The notes beneath the pieces were generated by a model. The model saw only the letters and a list, made by a program, of their open reading frames with translations, was not told where the DNA came from and did not search any database. Positions 4,579 to 18,609 of a stretch of DNA of 18,609 nt are shown piece by piece. Position 1 is the stretch's first letter, and each line of letters opens with the position of its first letter. The stretch lies in IMG/VR virus record IMGVR_UViG_3300045988_016379, one strand, 5' to 3'. This DNA comes from a virus. Position numbers and translations under genes: made by a program.

Positions 4579-6021
4579 TCACCATGGGTAGCAGACGAAA
4601 CATCCATTATTGCCTGCGGGGGTGCCATGATATGTAATACGTGGGTTCACGGATGTGTCGGACTTCAAATCGGTCAGCAACCAGCCGCTCACCGCATTGC
4701 CGGAATTAGTCAGACCCGCGCCCCATGCTCGGAACTGGTTGGGGTTAGCCCCCTGATAGGCTCTGGCCCAGCCCGGAAGCCTGACACCGTTCTTCAAGTC
4801 ATCGCTTGTGGACGAGTCATCACCCCAGAACGTTGCCATAATCATGCCGCCGGAGGCTACGACATTGCAACGAACATGGTTGTTGGATGAGTTGACCGTG
4901 GCCGCCTCATAGCGTCCGGTATAAGCGCCCCGAATGGCGGACGCCATATAGGATGCAATGACCTTGGCTCCGCTTGCGTTGGGGTGGATGTTACCGCTCG
5001 GGAAGTTGGAATCATTGCCGATGTTCCACGTCCACGCCCAATCAACGTTTTCCACGCCGTTATTGGCTGCCGCCTCGGCGACGCCCGCCGCTTTCTGCCG
5101 TCCATACATATCCATACCGGCATTATGCCAGAGCATTGGTACGGAGATGATACGCGCCTTGGGGAACTTCGTGCGCGCATTGGAGAATGTCTGGTCTGCA
5201 TACGACTTCATTTCAGCGGCGGTGCCGATGTCGTTACGCCCGCCTCCGATGATGATAATCGCCACGTTGTCGTTGCCGATGCCCGCCGCATTGTAGGCTC
5301 TGTTGATTTGGTCGGTGAACTTCTTACCCGACACGTTGAATCCGGCACCCGTGACCGAGTAATTTTTCACCTGATATTCGTTGCCGATGATGTTGCGGAG
5401 CTGTGTGGGCCACTTGGTCGCGTCCGTGCTATCCGCGTTGACGGTGTCGGCCGAATTGGCGTAACTATCACCGATGCAGAGGCAGATGGGTAGTTGGTCT
5501 TGCGGCGTCGTTTCCAATGCCTGAATACGCTGGTTCAACTGCTGTGCAGTGCCGGAATATCCGCCCTGGTTGGTAAACGTCGTGTCGGCTTGGTTCTTGG
5601 TGTACACGTCGGAGGTGTTCGCCTTGGTGTTGACCGTGCTGGACAATGAGGATACGGTACTCCTGAGCGAGGTCAGTTCGGTATTCTCCGCCTTGCCGTC
5701 GATGGTGTTCATAAGCTGCTGCGCGGTTGATTCCGACGTGACGCCCAGCTTGCCAAAATAGCTATTCAGGCCGGCAATATCGCCCTCGTTGGCCTGCGCG
5801 AGGCTTTTTGCGGCCTCAGCCGCCGTCTTAGCCTCGCCGGCCGCCGTTGTCGCGTTGTTCGCCGCCGCCGTGGCCGTGGTGATGTTGGTCGCGTTGGCGT
5901 ACATCTGATTATCGATTTTCGTCATCGCGTCGGTAAAATCGCCACGCCATGACGGACGGTCGTTCGGACTGTCGCCAAACGTCGGCAGATTATAGTGTCC
6001 GGTATGCTGTGTGGTTGACAT
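4579..6021 (-). CDS. Tail fibre/appendage with C-terminal SGNH (GDSL) hydrolase domain
   Basis: It has an N-terminal anchor motif (HYNLPTFGDSPNDRPSWRGDF..MTKID), an Ala/Thr-rich coiled-coil region, then SGNH blocks: CIGDSYANS (block I), IIGGGRNDIG (block III) and SGNIHPNASGAKVIA (block V). SD AAGAGGAA lies 5 nt upstream of the ATG. Confidence 0.8.
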   Translation of the reverse strand: MSTTQHTGHYNLPTFGDSPNDRPSWRGDFTDAMTKIDNQMYANATNITTATAAANNATTAAGEAKTAAEAAKSLAQANEGDIAGLNSYFGKLGVTSESTAQQLMNTIDGKAENTELTSLRSTVSSLSSTVNTKANTSDVYTKNQADTTFTNQGGYSGTAQQLNQRIQALETTPQDQLPICLCIGDSYANSADTVNADSTDATKWPTQLRNIIGNEYQVKNYSVTGAGFNVSGKKFTDQINRAYNAAGIGNDNVAIIIIGGGRNDIGTAAEMKSYADQTFSNARTKFPKARIISVPMLWHNAGMDMYGRQKAAGVAEAAANNGVENVDWAWTWNIGNDSNFPSGNIHPNASGAKVIASYMASAIRGAYTGRYEAATVNSSNNHVRCNVVASGGMIMATFWGDDSSTSDDLKNGVRLPGWARAYQGANPNQFRAWGAGLTNSGNAVSGWLLTDLKSDTSVNPRITYHGTPAGNNGCFVCYPW

Positions 6022-7093: not shown

Positions 7094-7888
7094 TTACTCC
7101 CATTCTTCATAGTTATGGCAGTCACTGAAAATTGTATCATAAGACCCCCACACCTGCATGAAACACGGTTCGAGGCTCCGCACAATTTCCATGTCCACAT
7201 TGATAATCGCCTGTCGGTACTCCTGTATCAGGCTCATGGCGGACTGGGAGCGGCCCGACGTGTGGGATTTGGTGCTCCCATCTGTAGCGTCGTGTTGCCA
7301 TTCCGTGCTGGATGTACTATGGGATTGAGAAGAGGTATCTTGCGTGCTATGGCTACTGCCGTCCGTATCCGCTTGCGCCTGATTGGCATGAGTCGCGTAT
7401 CGAGCAAAATCACCTTGCACTCCGGTTGCGGGCACTTCCGAGTCGTAAGACTGGGACTTGGTGCTACTTGAACTGGTGCCGTCCGAGGAGCTTCGGGTCG
7501 CACTATCCTGAGAGGCGCTGGTTTTGCCGCTGGACTGGGCTACAGTATTGGACAGGCTTTCACTGACCATTTCCATAGTGTTCAATGGGTCATATTTCAA
7601 CGCTAGCGTCCTGTATCGCTCATTAAAATATGGCATGATTTCCGCCATCGTCATCCCCAAGTAAAAAATGAACTGCTGGGCGGTTTCCTGTCCTATCTCT
7701 CGCAGCGCGTAATGGCGAACGATTTTCTCGTTCAGCTCGGCGCGGTGGTCTTCCTTATAAATCGGGTAATAGTCGGCGCTGAGATGCAGTTCGGCGTCCG
7801 TGTCGTATCCGAACGCAATGAGATTGCCAAGGGTTTCGGTGTACTCTCCCGGCGTTTCCATCGCGTAGGCGCTAAAATCCTGTGTCAT
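7094..7888 (-). CDS. Lower collar protein (phi29 gp11-like)
   Basis: The N-terminal region (YYPIYKEDHRAELNEKIVRHYALREIGQET...MAEIMPYFNERY) matches the conserved signature of lower collar proteins in phi29-like podophages. Its position directly after the connector gene also fits. SD GGAGGTG lies 7 nt upstream of the ATG, which overlaps the upstream TGA (TGATG). Confidence 0.8.
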   Translation of the reverse strand: MTQDFSAYAMETPGEYTETLGNLIAFGYDTDAELHLSADYYPIYKEDHRAELNEKIVRHYALREIGQETAQQFIFYLGMTMAEIMPYFNERYRTLALKYDPLNTMEMVSESLSNTVAQSSGKTSASQDSATRSSSDGTSSSSTKSQSYDSEVPATGVQGDFARYATHANQAQADTDGSSHSTQDTSSQSHSTSSTEWQHDATDGSTKSHTSGRSQSAMSLIQEYRQAIINVDMEIVRSLEPCFMQVWGSYDTIFSDCHNYEEWE

Positions 7889-8844
7889 CACAATACACCT
7901 CCGATACCCGCGTCGTGCGAGGCGGGCATATCGATATCCGTCGTACCACTGGCGCTAGAATCAAGCGCGTTGGGCACGCCGCTTGATTGCGCGTCCGCAT
8001 ACTCCACCCATACGTTCAGCTGTGGCCACAATCGGTTGATTTCGGTTGCCGCCGTCTGCCGCGCCTTGAGGAAACTCAGCCGGAACACGTCCACCTTTTC
8101 GTTGGCTTGCGCCACCTCATCGGAAATGAGCCGCTCTTTTTTTTCCGTCCCGGACGATTGAATGCCGAGATATCCCAATACCTCGTTGGTCACCTGAGTT
8201 TTCTGCTGGATGAACTTGTCCAGCAGATAGGGGGTGGTGTTGGGCCACGGTTGGAACATGCTACCGGGGTCGAGTGAATCGTATCCGATGATGTAATCCT
8301 GCCCGTCCTGTCGTTGTTGTAACATGTTCTGCACGGTGAGTTTGGTTCGCGGGTCGGCGGTGATGATGGTCGGCAGTTTCAGACTCTCCAAGTTCACGTC
8401 ATATGCCTTGTCGATGTCGGCGAGGCGTCGCGCGTACTGCCATAATGTCGGCTTGAATCCGACGCGCATTCGATTGTCCCAAATCGGAATGCATTCCGAG
8501 CCGGCTTTGAGCTGCCGATAATGGTAGTTGACGCCTACCGGCTCGAACATGGTGGGATTATTGTACACATTTAGCCGGCCTTGATAACCAGCCTGCGTTA
8601 CGAGGAATCTGCCGATACGTTTGTCCTCGAAAAACAACGCGCACCCATATTCGCACAAGCATATTTCCAGCCAACGCTCATCCACAGTGGGAGGCAGTCC
8701 GCGCCAGCTGAACCGATTCAACGCGAGTTCCATCAGCAAATGAAGATACATGTCATCGAGACTGGCGGCGCGTGTTTTCGCGTAATTGCCACGCGGATGC
8801 AACGCGCCGCCCCTACGATTCTGATTTTTTCTCAACCTGGACAT
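7888..8844 (-). CDS. Head-tail connector / upper collar (portal) protein, phi29 gp10-like
   Basis: Colinear similarity to phi29 gp10: basic N-terminus, F.W..LPPT, LGI....EKKERLISDEV (phi29 LGIKNANLEKKERMVTDEV). Position in the gene order matches. Confidence 0.9.
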   Translation of the reverse strand: MSRLRKNQNRRGGALHPRGNYAKTRAASLDDMYLHLLMELALNRFSWRGLPPTVDERWLEICLCEYGCALFFEDKRIGRFLVTQAGYQGRLNVYNNPTMFEPVGVNYHYRQLKAGSECIPIWDNRMRVGFKPTLWQYARRLADIDKAYDVNLESLKLPTIITADPRTKLTVQNMLQQRQDGQDYIIGYDSLDPGSMFQPWPNTTPYLLDKFIQQKTQVTNEVLGYLGIQSSGTEKKERLISDEVAQANEKVDVFRLSFLKARQTAATEINRLWPQLNVWVEYADAQSSGVPNALDSSASGTTDIDMPASHDAGIGGVL

Positions 8845-11125: not shown

Positions 11126-11159
11126 AGAAGGGAGTGTTTCACGTGAAACACTCCCTTTT
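11126..11159. terminator. Palindromic hairpin with flanking A/T tracts (bidirectional terminator-like) upstream of tail knob gene
   Basis: GGGAGTGTTTCAC/GTGAAACACTCCC is a perfect 26-nt palindrome at 11130-11155. It is extended by AAGAA/TTTTA flanks. On the - strand it is followed by UUCUUUGUG and then the SD of the knob gene. Confidence 0.6.
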
Positions 11160-11187
11160 ATTATATCGCAGATTAGACGACCGTCAC
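11160..11187 (-). promoter_or_regulatory. Candidate sigma70-type promoter reading into tail knob gene
   Basis: On the - strand: GTGACG (-35, 4/6), 16-nt spacer, TATAAT (-10, 6/6; 11165->11160). The predicted start would fall at or inside the 11130-11155 hairpin. Confidence 0.35.
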
Positions 11188-11286
11188 AGTGCCCTGACAG
11201 CTGACACCGAACAGCGCGGCCGTCAGCTTGGTGGAACCGGCGGCCACTCCAGTGACTAGGCCGGTATTGTCCACTAGAGGTTCGCG
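11173..11286 (-). pseudogene. Orphan remnant of a Big_2 (bacterial Ig-like) domain C-terminus, no start codon
   Basis: The frame is open for 37 codons between TGA (11287-11289) and TAA (11173-11175): REPLVDNTGLVTGVAAGSTKLTAALFGVSCQGTVTVV*. It parallels the capsid C-terminus SESGVVSGVKAGSSDITATLFGVSGKASMTVKA*. There is no ATG or SD, and it is out of frame with the capsid gene. Confidence 0.6.
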
Positions 11287-11320
11287 TCATCAATCATCAC
11301 CCAACCTCCGGTATGACAAA

Positions 11321-11353
11321 GCCCGGAGCGCTCACGTGGCTTGCGCTCCGGGC
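11321..11353 (-). terminator. GC-rich hairpin downstream of capsid gene (terminator-like)
   Basis: Stem GCCCGGAGCGC / GCGCTCCGGGC (11 bp) with an 11-nt loop. On the - strand it is followed by UUUGUCAU. Confidence 0.5.
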
Positions 11354-11376
11354 CTTGTCCTGTATCACACCGTGAG

Positions 11377-11404
11377 GGGAGGGTAGCCAGTCGGCTACCC
11401 TCCC
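11377..11404 (-). other. 12-bp perfect hairpin immediately after capsid stop codon
   Basis: GGGAGGGTAGCC-AGTC-GGCTACCCTCCC, 6 nt from the TGA at 11411-11413. No U-tract follows it. It is flanked by the short direct repeat TGTATCAC (11361-11368 and 11407-11414). Confidence 0.5.
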
Positions 11405-11410
11405 ATTGTA

Positions 11411-13141
11411 TCACGCTTTCACGGTCATACTGGCTTTGCCGGACACGCCGAACAGGGTCGCGGTGATATCGGACGAGCCTGCCTTGACACCGGACACCAC
11501 ACCCGACTCGGATACCGTGGCGTTCTCCGGAGTGCCGGAAGTCCATGCGGCCTGGGCGGTCACGTCGGCGGTACGCCCGTCAATCATGGTCGCCACTGCG
11601 GACGCCTGCGCCGTCTGATTCAGTTTCACCGCCGGGGCGGTCACGGCAATCGACGCGATGATGGACGGGCTGAATCCGATGACACCATCGCCGACCACCG
11701 GCACGCTCAGGGCGGCGGATACGGTGCCGGGCACTTCCGGCGTCGCCGGATTTGTATACAGGGCGGTGGCCGTCACCGGGATGCTGGTGTTCGGTTCGTC
11801 AAGGCCGACCACCAGCACGCCGGTGGGCGAAATGTACGTATAATCGCTCTTCGGCTTGACGGTATCGCCGATGGTATATTCGACCGCGTCGGAGCGGAAT
11901 GTGGCCGCACTGTCATTGGTGATGGTCGTATCGGCGGTAATCTGCACCGCGCTTCCACGCGACACGTTGGTCGGGGTTGTCGTGCCGCCGCCGTACATGG
12001 CGAGTTTGAGTTGGAAGGTCGGCGTCTTGGCTTGCGTGCCGGTGGGCGGCACCGTTTTGGCGCTGGAACCCGCGCCCGTCCAGAACATGACGGCGGGGGC
12101 GAAGCCGGACACGCTGATGATGTGCTGGACATGCAGGTAATGGTTCACCGAATTGATGTTGACCGGGTTCGTCTGCTGTGTCATCTCATTGATGGCGGGA
12201 ATATCAATGAGGAATTTATCCGTGGTGAGAATGGCCTGTACGCCATTCATGCCGAACCTGTCCTGCGGGATGACGATGATTCGGTCGATGGTCGGTTCGG
12301 CGTCGGTACGCTGGAATACGGTCGCCAATCCCTGAACATCGAGTGCCGACTTGACTTCCGGGGAACAGAACAGTACGAGCTCATCCGGGCGGGCGAACGT
12401 CGGCATGTGACGCGCGTTGTATCGGGTGGACACGAACTTCAGCGTGTCGGCCCATGCGCGAATCTGCCGCAGCATGTCTCGGGCGTCGGTTTCCGTCGAA
12501 CCCATGTCGTTCAGATCCTTGGCCATGTGGACACGCCAGTATCCGCCAAGCTTCGCGTACTCGACGAACTGATGGCACATGGCCTCGAACAAGTCGACTT
12601 CCGCCGCGTTGTAGCAGGATGTGAGGATTTGCGAGGTGAGGGACGCCAAACCGCCTTCGGAAATGAATGCACGCTGAAGCGTCTTGTCATCCGTGGTCGC
12701 CGGATACCAGTGGGCGAAATCAAGACGGTGATACAGCGAATCCACGTCGATTTTCCACTTACGGAAGTTATCCGCGCCGAGGTACTCGGCGTTCGGGTCG
12801 TACACCTGAGCGAGCGGCATGCCCACGGCAATCTCCTGCCACGTGTCGCCATACGCCTGAGATGCACGCTGGAAAACGCCGAGCGGATTGTTCCACCGCC
12901 ACGTGTTCACATAGGTGCCGCCGATGCGGTTCACCAGAGCTGCGTAAAACTCGTTTTTCAACTGACTGCTGGACATGAGCGTGGCCATCTGGCGGTCCAT
13001 GTTCATCTGGGTCGCACTTGGCATGCGCCGCTGATATTCAGGCGACGCCTCATTGCGAATCATATTGAGAATCTGAGCATTGTTGAATTCGGTGAGCGGG
13101 CGAAGCTGCTGCTTCGGCGTCACCACTGGGGCGGTCGGCAT
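11411..13141 (-). CDS. Major capsid protein with C-terminal Ig-like (Big_2) domain(s), phi29 gp8 analog
   Basis: 576 aa with a strong SD (AAGGAGA 6 nt upstream of the ATG). It sits after the scaffold gene and before the tail knob gene, as in phi29. The C-terminal ~80 aa have a Big_2 pattern (VTAPAV...ATVSESGVVSGVKAGSSDITATLFGVSGKASMTV). Assignment of the N-terminal ~370 aa rests on position and size only. Confidence 0.85.
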   Translation of the reverse strand: MPTAPVVTPKQQLRPLTEFNNAQILNMIRNEASPEYQRRMPSATQMNMDRQMATLMSSSQLKNEFYAALVNRIGGTYVNTWRWNNPLGVFQRASQAYGDTWQEIAVGMPLAQVYDPNAEYLGADNFRKWKIDVDSLYHRLDFAHWYPATTDDKTLQRAFISEGGLASLTSQILTSCYNAAEVDLFEAMCHQFVEYAKLGGYWRVHMAKDLNDMGSTETDARDMLRQIRAWADTLKFVSTRYNARHMPTFARPDELVLFCSPEVKSALDVQGLATVFQRTDAEPTIDRIIVIPQDRFGMNGVQAILTTDKFLIDIPAINEMTQQTNPVNINSVNHYLHVQHIISVSGFAPAVMFWTGAGSSAKTVPPTGTQAKTPTFQLKLAMYGGGTTTPTNVSRGSAVQITADTTITNDSAATFRSDAVEYTIGDTVKPKSDYTYISPTGVLVVGLDEPNTSIPVTATALYTNPATPEVPGTVSAALSVPVVGDGVIGFSPSIIASIAVTAPAVKLNQTAQASAVATMIDGRTADVTAQAAWTSGTPENATVSESGVVSGVKAGSSDITATLFGVSGKASMTVKA

Positions 13142-13164: not shown

Positions 13165-13506
13165 TTAATCTTCATACAGGTCGTTGAATGTACTGTATGT
13201 GCCGTTATAGTCATCGTCGGTCATTTCAGCCGATTCCGTTGTCGCGTCATCGTCGGAGCCATCGTTGAGCACGTGGTCTGCTGCCGCGTCGCGCATCGCC
13301 TCAATGGTCTCGGACAGTTCCGCCACGGTCGCCTCCAGGGCGCTGATACGGTTGGCCATGTCGGCGTTCTTGTCATCGCCAGCGTCTTCCGGTTCGCCGT
13401 CATCCTGCGTTTCAGGCTCCGGGTTCGGCGTATTGTCGGCGTCGGTCGCGTCCTGTTCGGTGTCGGGCGTGGTGTCCGACTTGTCGTCGGTTTCGACATC
13501 GTCCAT
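13165..13506 (-). CDS. Scaffolding protein (phi29 gp7 analog), highly acidic
   Basis: 113 aa directly upstream of the capsid gene, with a D/E/T-rich disordered N-terminus and a helical segment (NRISALEATVAELSETIEAMRDAAA). ATG 13506 with SD AAGGGG 8 nt upstream is preferred over the track's GTG at 13515. Confidence 0.7.
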   Translation of the reverse strand: MDDVETDDKSDTTPDTEQDATDADNTPNPEPETQDDGEPEDAGDDKNADMANRISALEATVAELSETIEAMRDAAADHVLNDGSDDDATTESAEMTDDDYNGTYSTFNDLYED

Positions 13507-13520
13507 AATAATCACCCCTT

Positions 13521-13557
13521 AAGATAAATGGCACGGCGGCAATCACGCTGCCGTGCC
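13521..13557 (-). terminator. Intrinsic terminator-like hairpin abutting the scaffold gene RBS
   Basis: On the - strand: GGCACGGCAGC-GUGAUU-GCCGCCGUGCC (8 bp, one mismatch, then 2 bp) followed by AUUUAUCUU. The SD AAGGGG of the scaffold gene follows immediately. Confidence 0.6.
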
Positions 13558-13696
13558 GGATTGCTAGGCTGTGCGGGTTCCCTCGCCGTCGCTGGGCGTT
13601 GGCTACGCACGTCTACATCCGACCGAATCGCCTTACCGATTTGCCTGACGGTCGGGCCATCGAATCGACTTGGGACGCACATCCCGCTACCGGTCA

Positions 13697-15157
13697 TTAT
13701 AACACAAAAGCATGTCCATCGTCGTTGAAATGCTGCGACCCCGGTAGGAACTCATCGTAGGGGATGGGTGCGGCGCGATGCACGCCGCTCAACCGCATCA
13801 CCGTCTCGCCGCCCGCCTCTATGCCACAATATTTGCGATTGCCGAGGATACGCAGCTTGTCGTAATTGTGGTCGTTTTTCCACGCTCCCAGTTTCCTGCC
13901 ATCCGGTTCGATGCCAATGGGCGCATCCAATCCCTCCAATATCATGCCATCGGTGTCGGCGTAAAGCACTCGGTCGGCGTTCGCGTTCATGGCGCGTGAT
14001 AGTATCCGTCTGCCATAGGCGTTGACGTAGGCGGCGGTCGGCAGCCATGCCATACTGTTGGCCGACCCGGGCTTGTCCACGATAAAATCCACACCACCGT
14101 CCGCAGAGGGTTTCGGATGCAGCATGGGGCGGTAGAGTGAGGCCCCGAATTTTCCCGCCAGCGAGTTCAGCAGCAATTTCGCCATTTGCCTGCGTTCTCC
14201 GGTTGCGGTTTGTTTCACGCGAAACCATTTGTCCACGTATGTGTAATATAGCCCGTGTGATTTGCGGAACTTCCATCCGCCGATATGCTCCCACACATGC
14301 ACGTCATAGTTTTCCGTGAGCGTCTCCCAATCCACATCCGTGACGGGCATGGTTACGACGCCTAGCGTGCTATCCAAACGTTCGCCCTCATACCCCCATA
14401 CGGGGAGGATATTGGTTAACGTCGCCGTTCCACCCGGTTTCAACCGCGCGTCGAACGCGATGATATCAATATGCAGCGGATAATCATTATCATGATGATA
14501 TTCGCCGTCATACCACATGGAGGCCCCCACCGGCATGGGGGCGTCGCGCATGATGCTCGGGTAAAGGCTGTTCACATCCCAGCTTCGACAATTCTTGTAT
14601 TCTCCGGGCTTGCTGTACACTATCGCCCCATAGTAGGCCGGCCGCATCCGGTGATAATCCGCCTTATCCAATGGCGGAAAATGACGTTTGAATCCGGCGT
14701 AATCCCCGTCGATATAGTCGGTCATCGCCATGGACGCTATGGTAGTGCCCCTGAGATTCAGGGCCTCGCATTCCCGTGCGATGTTCCACGTGGTTTCCAA
14801 GTCATCCATGCCGCCGAACGTTTCACGTGAAACATTCAGGCCATCGTCTCGAGTAACATTGCGGACATCCAGAAAATCCACGGTGATGCCGCCCATGCGC
14901 ACGCGAAAACTGTAGAAATGGCCACGGATATTGAACGTGCCCCACACGCCGTCCTTGACTGGGTTCGATTGCAATGGCAGTCGTTTCAGCAGCTCGGCGG
15001 CTATGGGCTTGATGTCCTGCCATCCGTGGGCGCACCATACGCGCGTGTGATGTTCGAGCATAGTGAGGCGGATGACGGCGTTCACCGTCAATGGTTCCAC
15101 ACCGTCATCCGTGCATAGCATTGCGCCGTCTGTTGCCGCCATTCGACGCTCTCGCAT
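13697..15157 (-). CDS. Family B DNA polymerase, protein-primed type (phi29 gp2-like), compact, exonuclease motifs apparently degenerate
   Basis: Motif A WDVNSLYPSIM, YPLHI (start of the TPR1 region), motif B KLLLNSLAGKFG, motif C LYADTDGM, and a KxY-like NRKY. The likely start is ATG 15157 (SD AAAAGGA 7 nt upstream, just after the upstream TAA). The track start 15199 overlaps the upstream gene. Confidence 0.92.
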   Translation of the reverse strand: MRERRMAATDGAMLCTDDGVEPLTVNAVIRLTMLEHHTRVWCAHGWQDIKPIAAELLKRLPLQSNPVKDGVWGTFNIRGHFYSFRVRMGGITVDFLDVRNVTRDDGLNVSRETFGGMDDLETTWNIARECEALNLRGTTIASMAMTDYIDGDYAGFKRHFPPLDKADYHRMRPAYYGAIVYSKPGEYKNCRSWDVNSLYPSIMRDAPMPVGASMWYDGEYHHDNDYPLHIDIIAFDARLKPGGTATLTNILPVWGYEGERLDSTLGVVTMPVTDVDWETLTENYDVHVWEHIGGWKFRKSHGLYYTYVDKWFRVKQTATGERRQMAKLLLNSLAGKFGASLYRPMLHPKPSADGGVDFIVDKPGSANSMAWLPTAAYVNAYGRRILSRAMNANADRVLYADTDGMILEGLDAPIGIEPDGRKLGAWKNDHNYDKLRILGNRKYCGIEAGGETVMRLSGVHRAAPIPYDEFLPGSQHFNDDGHAFVL

Positions 15158-15171
15158 GATTCCATCCTTTT

Positions 15172-16116
15172 TTAGTGTCGTGCCGCGTTGGTCATCCATT
15201 CATCAAGTCGTGTCTCTACATCTCCTGCATCCGCTTTTGTCTCCCATTTATGCGTTTTATCATTATACCATGCGGCCTCCCGTACCACGGCGCTAAAGTT
15301 CGTGTTGTTTATCAGCCATCGTTTTTGACGGTTCAACAAAGCGTAGAATTTTTGGGAGATGCTGGAGTCGAATGCCTCTAATTGCTGTTCGACTCTATCA
15401 AAATCCGCAACCCCCTCGTTCTTTGGAATCTGTCTAGTTCCCGCATGTAGCGGAGCTCGCCCCGTAAGCCCGGCGTACTCGAGTATCTCCCGCTCAAGTT
15501 TTTTACGCCCCCCTTCTCGTATCATCATGCGCGCGTGGCTTATGCCACGCTCTGTACCAAACACGTTCGCACGGTTGCGTGTGAGTTCGTCACGCGCCGA
15601 ACCGCCGACCGTATGAGTACCCAACACGTCGAACGGTGACTCTCCCGCGCGTTCCATTTCACGTATTTCGGCCACGGTGTAGCGGGCCATGCTCAATGCC
15701 TCGAATTGTTGGTCGCGTTTGATTTTCCGCCGCGCTTCGATACGGCGGCGCTGCTGTTGCCTCAATGTTTTCCGACGTTTTGACGGGGCGGCGCTGATTT
15801 CTGCATCGGTTATCAACGGTCGCGCCGCCAGCTCCCTATCGAGTTTCGTGACATGCACGTCGGGGACAACCTGATACGGCTCGTTATCCCGTGACCTTAA
15901 AGCCTGCTGCCGTTCCCCAAACTCCTGCCCGATGCGGCGTGCGACCTGCTCGAGTTGTTGAGCGCTGAGCTTCCCCAAAAACGTTTCGGTGATTTGCTTG
16001 GGGAGGTGTCCGGTGCTATAGTCTCTGACCGCCTGCTCTCGGCGTACCTGTGCCGACCTGGTGGCGGCATTACGTTTCAGGCTGCTAGCGCGTCGATTGT
16101 TTTTACGTTTTGCCAC
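15172..16116 (-). CDS. Candidate terminal protein (phi29 gp3 analog)
   Basis: The call rests on position: it is immediately upstream of the protein-primed polymerase, as in phi29. It is Arg/Lys-rich, especially at the N-terminus (AKRKNNRRASSLKRNAATR). GTG 16116 is preferred because of the strong SD AAGGAGAG 5-7 nt upstream. The track start 16194 would translate through a terminator hairpin. I recognised no sequence similarity to phi29 TP by eye. Confidence 0.5.
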   Translation of the reverse strand: MAKRKNNRRASSLKRNAATRSAQVRREQAVRDYSTGHLPKQITETFLGKLSAQQLEQVARRIGQEFGERQQALRSRDNEPYQVVPDVHVTKLDRELAARPLITDAEISAAPSKRRKTLRQQQRRRIEARRKIKRDQQFEALSMARYTVAEIREMERAGESPFDVLGTHTVGGSARDELTRNRANVFGTERGISHARMMIREGGRKKLEREILEYAGLTGRAPLHAGTRQIPKNEGVADFDRVEQQLEAFDSSISQKFYALLNRQKRWLINNTNFSAVVREAAWYNDKTHKWETKADAGDVETRLDEWMTNAARH

Positions 16117-17841: not shown

Positions 17842-18103
17842 CAAACATCCTCTCAAACGGCAAACGCACCTCAACAACACCATTCAAAACCCCGTTTGAA
17901 TCAAACGAAGAGTGGGCAAAACCAACATACACATCAAGACCGGAAAACGCACGACGGACAACGTCAAGCACACCATCCAACGCCTCCTTAAACGTACCAG
18001 CCGGATACGGGCCCATTACCTCCACATGCTCAGGCGTGAGCTCAAATACCGTAAAATCATCAGGCGTAACAGTAAAACACCACACGTCAAACCCCTTTCC
18101 CAT
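17828..18103 (-). CDS. Hypothetical acidic early protein (91 aa); start codon lies inside ITR-R
   Basis: ATG at 18103 overlaps the TGA of the ITR gene (TGATG). The first ~3.3 codons (ATGGGAAAGG) are ITR sequence. Composition is acidic. Confidence 0.65.
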   Translation of the reverse strand: MGKGFDVWCFTVTPDDFTVFELTPEHVEVMGPYPAGTFKEALDGVLDVVRRAFSGLDVYVGFAHSSFDSNGVLNGVVEVRLPFERMFDDGE

Positions 18104-18390
18104 CAAAAATCAACCAACTCATCACGGTCAAGCACAGTCACATCAACACACTGACACGGCTGAAGCCCATACTCCGCAAAATCACCAACACCATCAATCA
18201 TATCACAAGCATACTCAACACAATAATCAACATCCTGCACCCAATAAGCCCCATCCGAGCCATCAACGGGCTCCAAAGCACCAACCTCAAAGAAATCATT
18301 AGACCAATCAGGACCATAGCCCAAACTATCACGGTCCCACTCCCTGAGAGTAATCTCAACGACCTTAGTGTTATCAATCAAAATAATCAT
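18103..18390 (-). CDS. Hypothetical very acidic early protein (95 aa), ITR-encoded copy 2
   Basis: The translation is identical to 220-507. It lies wholly inside ITR-R with the same promoter and SD. Confidence 0.8.
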   Translation of the reverse strand: MIILIDNTKVVEITLREWDRDSLGYGPDWSNDFFEVGALEPVDGSDGAYWVQDVDYCVEYACDMIDGVGDFAEYGLQPCQCVDVTVLDRDELVDF

Positions 18391-18425
18391 TTTTTTATTT
18401 TCCCTTCCTTGAAGTTGATACTTAT

Positions 18426-18454
18426 ATCATACCACACACACCACCAAACAACAA
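18426..18454 (-). promoter_or_regulatory. Candidate early promoter inside ITR-R (mirror of 156-184)
   Basis: This is the reverse-complement copy of TTGTTG-17 nt-TGgTATGAT. It points inward into the long - strand gene array. Confidence 0.55.
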
Positions 18455-18609
18455 GCCCAAAACACCCTCAAAAAAAAAACGGCAAAACAAAGAAAAAAAA
18501 TAAACACACAGGAGACGGAAACAAAAACACAGGAAGCAACATGAATACAAAACACAGAACAGAGCGGTTGTGGAAAAAGGCTAGCTGCTGGGGCCCCTCC
18601 CCTCCTTTT

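Follow-up and report, generated by a model that had tools for sequence, protein, structure and literature searches.

Introduction

Prohead or packaging RNA (pRNA) is the only RNA known to be essential to a viral DNA-packaging motor, and it is also a workhorse of RNA nanotechnology. It sits as a ring on the prohead connector and does not occur in mature virions. As reported, pRNA is unique to phi29 and related Bacillus phages (2024 review, PMC11476376; likewise PMC5066667); the carriers of the Rfam family RF00044 (Phage_pRNA) are the Bacillus phages phi29, M2/Nf, B103, SF5 and GA-1 and newer Bacillus isolates. An Infernal-based search in 2025 yielded 12 new pRNAs, all of them in Bacillus phages and validated by the same criteria as those applied here (PMC12670572), and for phages of other hosts, no pRNA prediction was found in the searchable literature. 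The short gp16-type ATPases of other phi29-like phages belong to the same family as the pRNA-dependent ATPase of phi29, which raises the question of whether they use an RNA as well. In this study, we analyzed an 18,609-nt stretch of viral DNA (IMG/VR record IMGVR_UViG_3300045988_016379, hereafter the window), which is the complete genome of a phi29-like podovirus, and focused on the gap between its DNA polymerase gene and its scaffold gene on the minus strand.

The RNA of this gap is probably a divergent pRNA of the phage motor. A first-pass annotation of the window had suggested a discrete RNA of about 170 nt, possibly the missing pRNA, and we favor this reading because the RNA has its own promoter and terminator, is conserved, has the topology of phi29 pRNA, carries a co-varying bulge and loop, and is positioned after the polymerase gene. 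The accompanying statement that no pRNA is recognizable elsewhere in the genome holds in Rfam, conservation and fold scans: no other structured or conserved non-coding region was found elsewhere in the genome as a rival locus, the genome ends are poorly conserved among relatives, and positions 1-219 fold no better than shuffles. The genome has no tRNA or tmRNA genes.

Overall architecture of the gap RNA

We retrieved 80 related contigs through their polymerases (85-97% identical), and the gap is present in all of them (the window clade). The phi29 pRNA gene was also retrieved and folded with the same tool as the window RNA; its element names and its 117 + 13 + 44-nt organization follow PMC5066667. 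The two RNAs, 174 nt in phi29 and ~168 nt in the window (169 nt folded), show the same dot-bracket topology, element by element. Domain I of the window RNA comprises 125 nt (13687-13563, on the minus strand like all elements of this RNA), for which the RNAalifold consensus, the pair counts and the single-sequence minimum free energy (MFE) fold agree. It is closed by helix P1 (13687-13672 with 13582-13563), which contains a 3-nt ACC bulge at 13578-13576 and is continued to a three-way junction by helix P2 (13669-13657 with 13595-13585), and P1 and P2 together comprise 25 bp. The C/E arm (13655-13619) consists of the 7-bp C helix (13655-13649 with 13625-13619), the 7-nt 5' bulge UCAGGCA (13648-13642), the 5-bp E stem (13641-13637 with 13630-13626) and the 6-nt E loop GUAAGG (13636-13631). 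This arm is the composite hairpin CCGACCG[UCAGGCA]AAUCG-GUAAGG-CGAUU-CGGUCGG that had been pointed out earlier, and the direct repeats CGAUUCG (13667-13661 and 13630-13624) and GA(U/C)GUGCGU..CCA reported with it are present as well. A 10-nt spacer separates the arm from the D hairpin, which has a 4-bp stem (13608-13605 with 13599-13596) and the 5-nt loop AGCCA (13604-13600).

The same elements occur in phi29 pRNA, where a long helix of the 5' and 3' ends, interrupted by a 3-nt bulge, leads to a three-way junction with a C helix, and the loops of the E and D hairpins are 6 nt and 5 nt, respectively; its 5' (CE) bulge is 9 nt instead of 7 nt. The elements of domain I, namely, helix A, the three-way junction, the C/E arm and the D hairpin, were therefore found in order in the window RNA. 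In both RNAs, a single-stranded linker then leads to a 3' hairpin that ends the transcript. The linker of the window RNA is 5 nt long (13562-13558), is unpaired in the consensus and MFE folds, and varies in length and sequence among the relatives; the 3' hairpin has 12 bp (13557-13530) and is both the equivalent of domain II and the stem of an intrinsic terminator.

As a single sequence, the fold is only modestly above chance (z = -2.25 for the whole gap and -2.73 for 13689-13521). Comparative folding with related phages, which the first-pass annotation had proposed as a check, supports it through pair counts and covariation: among the 80 relatives, 97.5% of cells pair in the consensus fold, compared with 28-43% when the partners are slid, and none of 500 shuffles reaches its covariation score. 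The clade is so conserved that most helices are invariant. The compensatory changes are concentrated in the 3' hairpin (pairs 153-172, UA:48/CG:31; 155-170, GC:43/AU:30; 157-168, GC:43/AU:32), in P2 pair 39-112 and in the closing pair 98-104 of the short D hairpin, which covaries as UA:44, CG:19 and UG:17.

The loop of the 3' hairpin, GUGAUUGC (13540-13547), is common to L083, L084, L087-L090, L092 and L093 despite their different stems. Such conservation is unexpected for a mere terminator and suggests that the loop is recognized by something; it parallels the unexplained conservation of domain II in phi29 pRNA. A pseudoknot between GAUUG of this loop and CAAUC of the linker was rejected, as by eye it is broken in most relatives (CAAAC).

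Related elements in other phages

In L086, whose polymerase is ~55% identical, the element aligns in register, and paired substitutions replace almost every helix; the GUAAGG loop and the GGC/GCC motifs are kept. L086 scores 90 bits in a model built from alignment A5, which includes L086 itself. MAFFT misaligns the D hairpin of L086 by one column and L083 and L084 entirely, and the kissing loops were compared across lineages by script instead of in one cross-lineage alignment.

Clade 2, a group of 79 BP1/BD811P-like sequences, independently folds to the same architecture. In this clade, 96.5% of cells pair, compared with 34-44% with slid partners, the number of double-change pairs is 28 versus 6-10, and 0/500 shuffles reach any observed measure. 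The RNA of clade 2 ends at a strong terminator consisting of a hairpin and CAUUUUAUUUUC, and a separate, near-invariant extended -10 late promoter, CATGATATAAT, lies between this terminator and the scaffold gene (~12990-13010 on the minus strand of L092, which is BP1; columns 207-219 of alignment A3). The window clade is without the CATGATATAAT late promoter and has a weaker U-tract, and the two clades appear to organize late transcription differently.

Among cultured phages, BP1 (PQ571273.1: 12970-13199), BD811P1 (OP172658.1: 12776-13003) and BadAztec1 (NC_048858.1: 12680-12857) have unannotated polymerase-scaffold gaps that resemble that of the window in synteny, in the TGnTAnnnT motif over the polymerase stop and in architecture. 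BP1 and BD811P1 also share the GUGAUUG motif of the 3'-hairpin loop, whereas the loop of BadAztec1 differs. In contrast, all three differ from the window in primary sequence, helix lengths and kissing motif and lack a covariance-model link to it, and BP1 and BD811P1 contain an extra ~45 nt with the separate late promoter.

The Arthrobacter phages Mendel, Swim, Tillums and Anjali (Anjalivirus) have a like-positioned element upstream of their scaffold and capsid genes. In Mendel (L339) it is an unannotated, very stable element at 4932-5075 with a single-sequence z of -6.85, with counterparts in L340-L342, and 12 of its 51 predicted pairs show compensatory changes among the four phages. Like the window RNA, it comprises a long closing helix, a C helix, an E hairpin, a D hairpin and a strong 3' hairpin; its 5' bulge is 6 nt, its E loop is UUGAAU, and AGCU of the bulge is complementary to AGCU of the loop. 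Unlike in the window, a ribbon-helix-helix gene lies between the polymerase gene and the element. Moreover, the kissing motif is palindromic, one of the four phages retains just 3 bp of it, and the pRNA-like fold of Mendel is 3 kcal/mol above the MFE, which prefers a nested helix. Gene 11 of Tillums, annotated as 'hypothetical protein', starts inside the 3' hairpin region of the element. With a z of +1.06, the polymerase-scaffold region of Curtobacterium phage Reje shows no signal of a fold.

The covariance model R2, which represents the window clade, L081 and L086, gave marginal matches to L083 (E = 0.048), L088 (0.29), L177 (1.8) and L084 (3.9), all four in the syntenic gap and on the correct strand. 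Because the covariance models fail to bridge the clades, homology among the groups rests on position, promoter, terminator and architecture, together with the GUGAUUG loop of most human-gut Bifidobacterium-phage lineages. Collectively, covariation in three phage groups shows support for the predicted secondary structure.

Complementarity between the 5' bulge and the D loop

In phi29, the CE bulge of pRNA pairs with the D loop of a neighboring molecule, and two G-C pairs suffice (PMC5066667). In the window, GGC of the bulge (13645-13643) is complementary to GCC of the D loop (13603-13601), and both motifs are invariant (80/80) while neighboring loop positions vary; no such constraint is seen at bulge positions 13648 and 13647 (alignment columns 52-53), where variation is free. 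The corresponding bulge-loop pairs are GACUA:UAGUC in L084 and L177, GACUG:UGGUC in L083, GCCA:UGGC with ACCA:UGGU variants in clade 2, ACC:GGU in the BadAztec group and AGCU:AGCU in the Arthrobacter phages. In clade 2, G-C to A-U double changes occur in three lineages, and the first kissing pair, 65-111, is GC:66, GU:8 and AU:3 and is unpaired in none. A matrix of the longest Watson-Crick runs separates three compatibility groups, with cognate runs of 3-5 bp and runs of mostly 2 bp between groups.

The CE bulge and D loop are thus Watson-Crick complementary and co-vary. The criteria used in the field for predicting pRNAs in silico are gp10 and gp16 in the same genome and co-mutating loops (PMC12670572), and both were found here: the window encodes a connector (PF05352 Phage_connector, 2.5e-42) together with a packaging ATPase (PF05894 Podovirus_Gp16, 1.2e-43). 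Bulge-loop complementarity whose sequence changes between lineages would be the signature of ring formation by pRNA, and we regard this signal as real but moderate.

Promoter, terminator and predicted transcript

The first-pass annotation had found no recognizable promoter; however, a perfect extended -10 element, TGTTATAAT, lies at 13704-13696 on the minus strand, across the final codons of the polymerase gene and its TAA stop. It is conserved in all lineages, and the genome contains just one other perfect TGNTATAAT site. This sequence serves two purposes, as the two sense codons and the stop that close the polymerase gene also make up the extended -10 of the RNA gene downstream. All lineages examined, even those with ~35% polymerase identity, retain TGnTAnnnT over the polymerase stop, in the variants TGCTATAAT, TGTTATAAT, TGCTATGAT or TGCTATAGT. 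The last polymerase codon is xTA in 159/159 relatives, although xTA accounts for 15% of Leu codons genome-wide; the penultimate codon ends in TG in all but one of the 159, with GTG and ATG interchanging so that the residue changes; and the base following the stop is T in 159/159. As a rare codon is fixed, TG is kept despite the residue change and T follows the stop, these patterns show selection on the predicted promoter motif beyond protein coding. The other perfect site, TGGTATAAT, is at 15262-15270 (-), inside the putative terminal-protein gene and ~60 nt upstream of the polymerase start, and may be an internal promoter for the polymerase.

Based on the -10 spacing and on a 5' motif, GUAG(C/A)GGG, that is conserved across lineages, the 5' end of the RNA is predicted at 13687-13690, 6-9 nt downstream of the -10 and at the conserved GUAG; the first helix begins 9 nt after the -10. 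At the other end, a terminator scan flagged the 13557-13530 hairpin, and the predicted 3' end lies in the U-rich tail AUUUAUCUU (13529-13521), a weak U-tract that ends just ahead of the scaffold Shine-Dalgarno (SD) sequence. This agrees with the earlier description of a terminal hairpin and AUUUAUCUU directly before that SD, and partial read-through at the tail is probable. The predicted RNA, from promoter to hairpin terminator, is ~168 nt, roughly 13689-13521. At the sequence level, the locus has the promoter, terminator, linker and 3' hairpin of an independent transcription unit, and it likely yields a discrete transcript. A -35/-10 match from a promoter scan (13534-13505) was rejected, since its TATTAT abuts the scaffold start and 3 nt of it are deleted in nearly all relatives.

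Conservation and non-coding status of the gap

The gap is filled by a 61-aa ATG open reading frame (ORF; 13697-13512, minus strand), which starts over the polymerase TAA as TAATG and ends just ahead of the scaffold start; the earlier statement that the minus strand has no ORF here was therefore incorrect. The ORF might be a genuine gene for a small protein, with its translation coupled to that of the polymerase, as the stop-start overlap is typical of coupling, nothing interrupts the frame in the window or the window's closest relative, L001, and the ORF appears in a few database entries under the label 'hypothetical protein'. However, we give this reading hardly any credence. In most of the 80 relatives, the start codon is ATA instead of ATG, and the frame is broken by indels or stops at 10, 20, 27, 44, 48 or 50 codons, so that neither frame nor start is conserved. 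Moreover, the three codon positions are equally conserved, the substitutions track base-pairing and not codons, and the ORF has no match in Pfam or PHROG. The coding reading was rejected on the broken frame, and the 61 aa are not a gene. Only seven database proteins, of 35-62 aa, match the ORF. The entries P0001-P0005 (nr, UniRef), 'hypothetical protein' entries of 48-62 aa, are translations of the RNA gene, and such entries are probably mis-annotations.

Column identity is 0.94-0.99 in the gap and 0.80-0.92 in the flanking polymerase and scaffold coding sequences. In a scan of a multiple alignment that covered ~9 kb (window 18605-9540), the top two of 293 sliding 60-nt windows both fall in the gap (0.963 and 0.951; median 0.888). 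Because the frame is broken in relatives and yet the nucleotides are more conserved than the flanking coding sequences, we conclude with very high confidence that the gap is a constrained, non-coding, structured element. The first-pass annotation was thus right to call it non-coding, although the observation behind that call does not hold. The same gap, of about 170-235 nt (169-234), is without annotation in any relative or isolate.

Assessment of the proposed function

According to the pRNA reading, a ~168-nt non-coding RNA would be transcribed on the minus strand from the -10 over the polymerase stop and would end at the 13557-13530 hairpin. Copies of this RNA would join head-to-tail by GGC:GCC bulge-loop pairing to form a ring on the gp10-type prohead connector, and, as in phi29, the long 5'/3' helix would dock the gp16-type ATPase. 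The 3' hairpin would also serve as the terminator, and in the window clade, partial read-through of it would also feed late-gene transcription.

Several observations weigh against this reading. The Rfam covariance model RF00044, whose use had been recommended in the first-pass annotation, gave no match at three sensitivities, that is, in the whole window at the gathering threshold or at E<=10 and on 13500-13710 (211 bases) with the laxest filters; it also has no match in BP1 or BadAztec1, and as a positive control it scores 145.4 bits on phi29. The window RNA is not a member of RF00044 as defined. Since known pRNAs share only ~12% sequence similarity (PMC5066667), this failure lowers formal membership more than functional analogy. 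A match to Rfam tpke11 (E = 0.14) covers only the terminator hairpin and the SD, is far below the gathering threshold and was treated as chance. Among the phage lineages, the pRNA-like scheme could not be fitted to L087 and L088, and the pRNA-like fold of BadAztec is 6 kcal/mol above its MFE. The covariance model of clade 2 (R1) misses the window element and all other lineages with filters on or off, and R2 gives no match in clade 2, L087 or BadAztec. Within the window RNA, the 3' strand of the long helix carries the 3-nt bulge, which lies on the 5' strand in phi29 pRNA, and the D stem is short, with 4 bp. The bulge-loop match of the window is 3 bp (all G-C), with a chance probability of ~0.15-0.19, and GGC:GCC never varies within the window clade, hence no covariation is possible there. 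Finally, a stem that closes two hairpins is common among RNAs, and the bulge-loop pairing could be an intramolecular pseudoknot instead of a ring-forming contact.

The last points lead to a different explanation, in which the element is a structured small RNA or cis element with a non-packaging function, for example, a trans-acting regulatory small RNA, a stabilizing 3' untranslated region of the polymerase mRNA or a protein-binding decoy; the shared shape would then be generic and the pairing an intramolecular pseudoknot. The missing covariance-model link to the pRNA family and between clades, the 3-bp loop match and the commonness of the three-way shape are consistent with it, and a regulator would also fit well at a site that separates the replication module from the structural module. 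We nevertheless consider it unlikely, though worth keeping in view. It does not account for the element-by-element match to phi29 pRNA in loop sizes, bulge side, order and length, for complementarity exactly where pRNA has it with a sequence that changes between lineages, or for E loops like the conserved E loop of phi29 in several lineages. Moreover, the element occurs only in genomes with a gp10/gp16 motor, which in phi29 requires such an RNA, and the genome offers no alternative pRNA candidate.

The first-pass annotation had also proposed an early/late antitermination switch, in which the RNA would be a late-operon leader whose terminator is read through by means of alternative folds, an antiterminator or a put-like RNA. 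In the window clade, 9 nt separate the end of the hairpin from the scaffold SD, there is no space for a late promoter, and the U-tract is weak; because of this, late transcription there probably reads through the hairpin. The alternative CGAUU:AAUCG pairing (helix 33-37 with 59-63), invoked earlier for mutually exclusive folds, is sequence-compatible (99.7%) in the window clade. However, it shows no double changes, 398 of 500 shuffles reach its score, and the sequences are absent from clade 2, so that the compatible sequence comes without a covariation signal. In clade 2, the RNA ends at its own strong terminator before the separate, near-invariant promoter CATGATATAAT, and for this reason it would not be a late-operon leader there; an obligatory leader in all relatives fails, as this holds for the window clade only. 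A strong 3' hairpin ahead of the SD closes the Arthrobacter elements as well. A switch also fails to explain the conserved 125-nt three-way-junction structure and the loop-loop complementarity, and we regard it as quite improbable. What persists of the switch proposal is plausible read-through in the window clade, which is probably clade-specific and not the reason for the conservation of the RNA.

Genome context and host

Nearly all genes of the phage are on the minus strand. The early region contains small early genes, a phi29-type single-stranded DNA-binding protein (labeled after relatives) and the putative terminal protein; the type-B DNA polymerase, protein-primed and phi29-type, is encoded at 15199-13697. 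The scaffold gene (13506-13165), the first late gene, directly follows the RNA gene, with its SD AAGGGG at 13520-13515 and its ATG at 13506-13504. Downstream of it on the minus strand are the genes for the Phi29-type major capsid protein (Phi29_MCP), the gp9 tail knob and the gp10 connector, followed by tail and lysis genes and, at the late end of the gene order, the gp16 packaging ATPase. In phi29, gp10 has a basic N-terminus that contacts pRNA. The connector of the window (7888-8844, -) also has a strongly basic N-terminus, which starts MSRLRKNQNRRGG and includes the basic stretch MSRLRKNQNRRGGALHPRGNYAKTRAA; its resemblance to the pRNA-binding N-terminus of phi29 gp10 is a weak hint.

The nearest cultured relatives are the Bifidobacterium phages BadAztec, BP1 and BD811P, with a capsid identity of 37-44%, and no DNA similarity to the window was found among deposited phages. 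One near-identical polymerase was found in a Bifidobacterium breve metagenome-assembled genome, and the related contigs are mostly from human gut metagenomes. As these observations point in the same direction, the host is very probably a gut Bifidobacterium.

The genome has perfect 516-nt inverted terminal repeats (1-516 and 18094-18609), which is very long for a phi29-like phage, as those of phi29 are 6 nt; such long repeats may be real, as they are in other protein-primed genomes, or may result from the assembly. Each repeat holds a 95-aa ORF (220-507, +; 18103-18390, -) preceded by TGGTATGAT (176-184, +; 18426-18434, -). These near-consensus extended -10 copies, ~36 nt upstream of the terminal ORFs in both repeats, are what early promoters would be expected to show. 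At 787-819, where the minus-strand late operon converges with the plus-strand ORFs of the left end, lies a perfect bidirectional intrinsic terminator (AAAAAGCCGGUGGGGA/UCCCUACCGGCUUUUU). Between the capsid and tail-knob genes, a 259-nt gap (11152-11410; 124 nt in L081) contains a 17-bp hairpin at 11315-11359, and TGATACAAT (11405-11413) overlaps the capsid stop codon; this gap is possibly a terminator with an internal promoter after the capsid gene.

Implications

A broader proposal, to which we give even chances, is that pRNAs, GC-rich and very divergent, occur in actinobacterial phi29-like phages at a conserved site that separates the replication module from the scaffold gene, with several orthogonal ring-forming loop pairs, and that the RNA is ancestral to the motor. 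With the same even chances, it would cover abundant Bifidobacterium phages of the human and honeybee gut and Arthrobacter phages of soil. If so, the origin of the RNA component would be pushed back to the root of the phi29-like group, new GC-rich three-way junctions and orthogonal kissing-loop pairs would become available, and genome annotations in which the region is blank or a 'hypothetical protein' would be corrected. The candidate is testable in the cultured phages BP1, BD811P1-3, BadAztec and Mendel, and the group is common in the human gut. The locus also shows how the final codons of a polymerase gene can harbor a promoter.

Comparison with known systems

The processive-antitermination RNA put of HK022 consists of two simple stem-loops of ~70 nt. 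Like intrinsic terminators and put RNAs, the window locus lies downstream of a promoter, separates early from late genes of the same direction and has a GC-rich hairpin that is followed by a U-rich tail. Unlike in put RNAs, a 125-nt three-way junction and a loop-loop complementarity are conserved here.

The window RNA shows neither sequence similarity nor a covariance-model match to phi29 pRNA. Compared with the latter, it is richer in G+C (62% versus 41%), has a longer spacer before the D hairpin (10 nt versus 3 nt) and has a kissing motif of three G-C pairs instead of the 4-bp AACC:GGUU. The E loop of phi29, UUGAGU, is conserved in the Rfam consensus, and GUAAGG, its counterpart in the window, is identical to it at 2/6 positions; the Arthrobacter phages, L084 and L087 have UUGAAU at this place, and the BadAztec group has UUAAGU. 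The window RNA gene lies between the polymerase and late genes, and its promoter overlaps the polymerase stop codon, whereas the pRNA gene of phi29 lies near the genome end behind small early genes. Unlike that of phi29, the host of the window phage is very probably an actinobacterium, and the window RNA is a prediction from sequence. Both phages are podoviruses with a gp10 connector and a gp16 ATPase. The phi29 transcript starts at promoter A1 and ends with a hairpin and UUUU, and in both phages the RNA gene is located downstream of the polymerase gene, on the same strand and with its own promoter.

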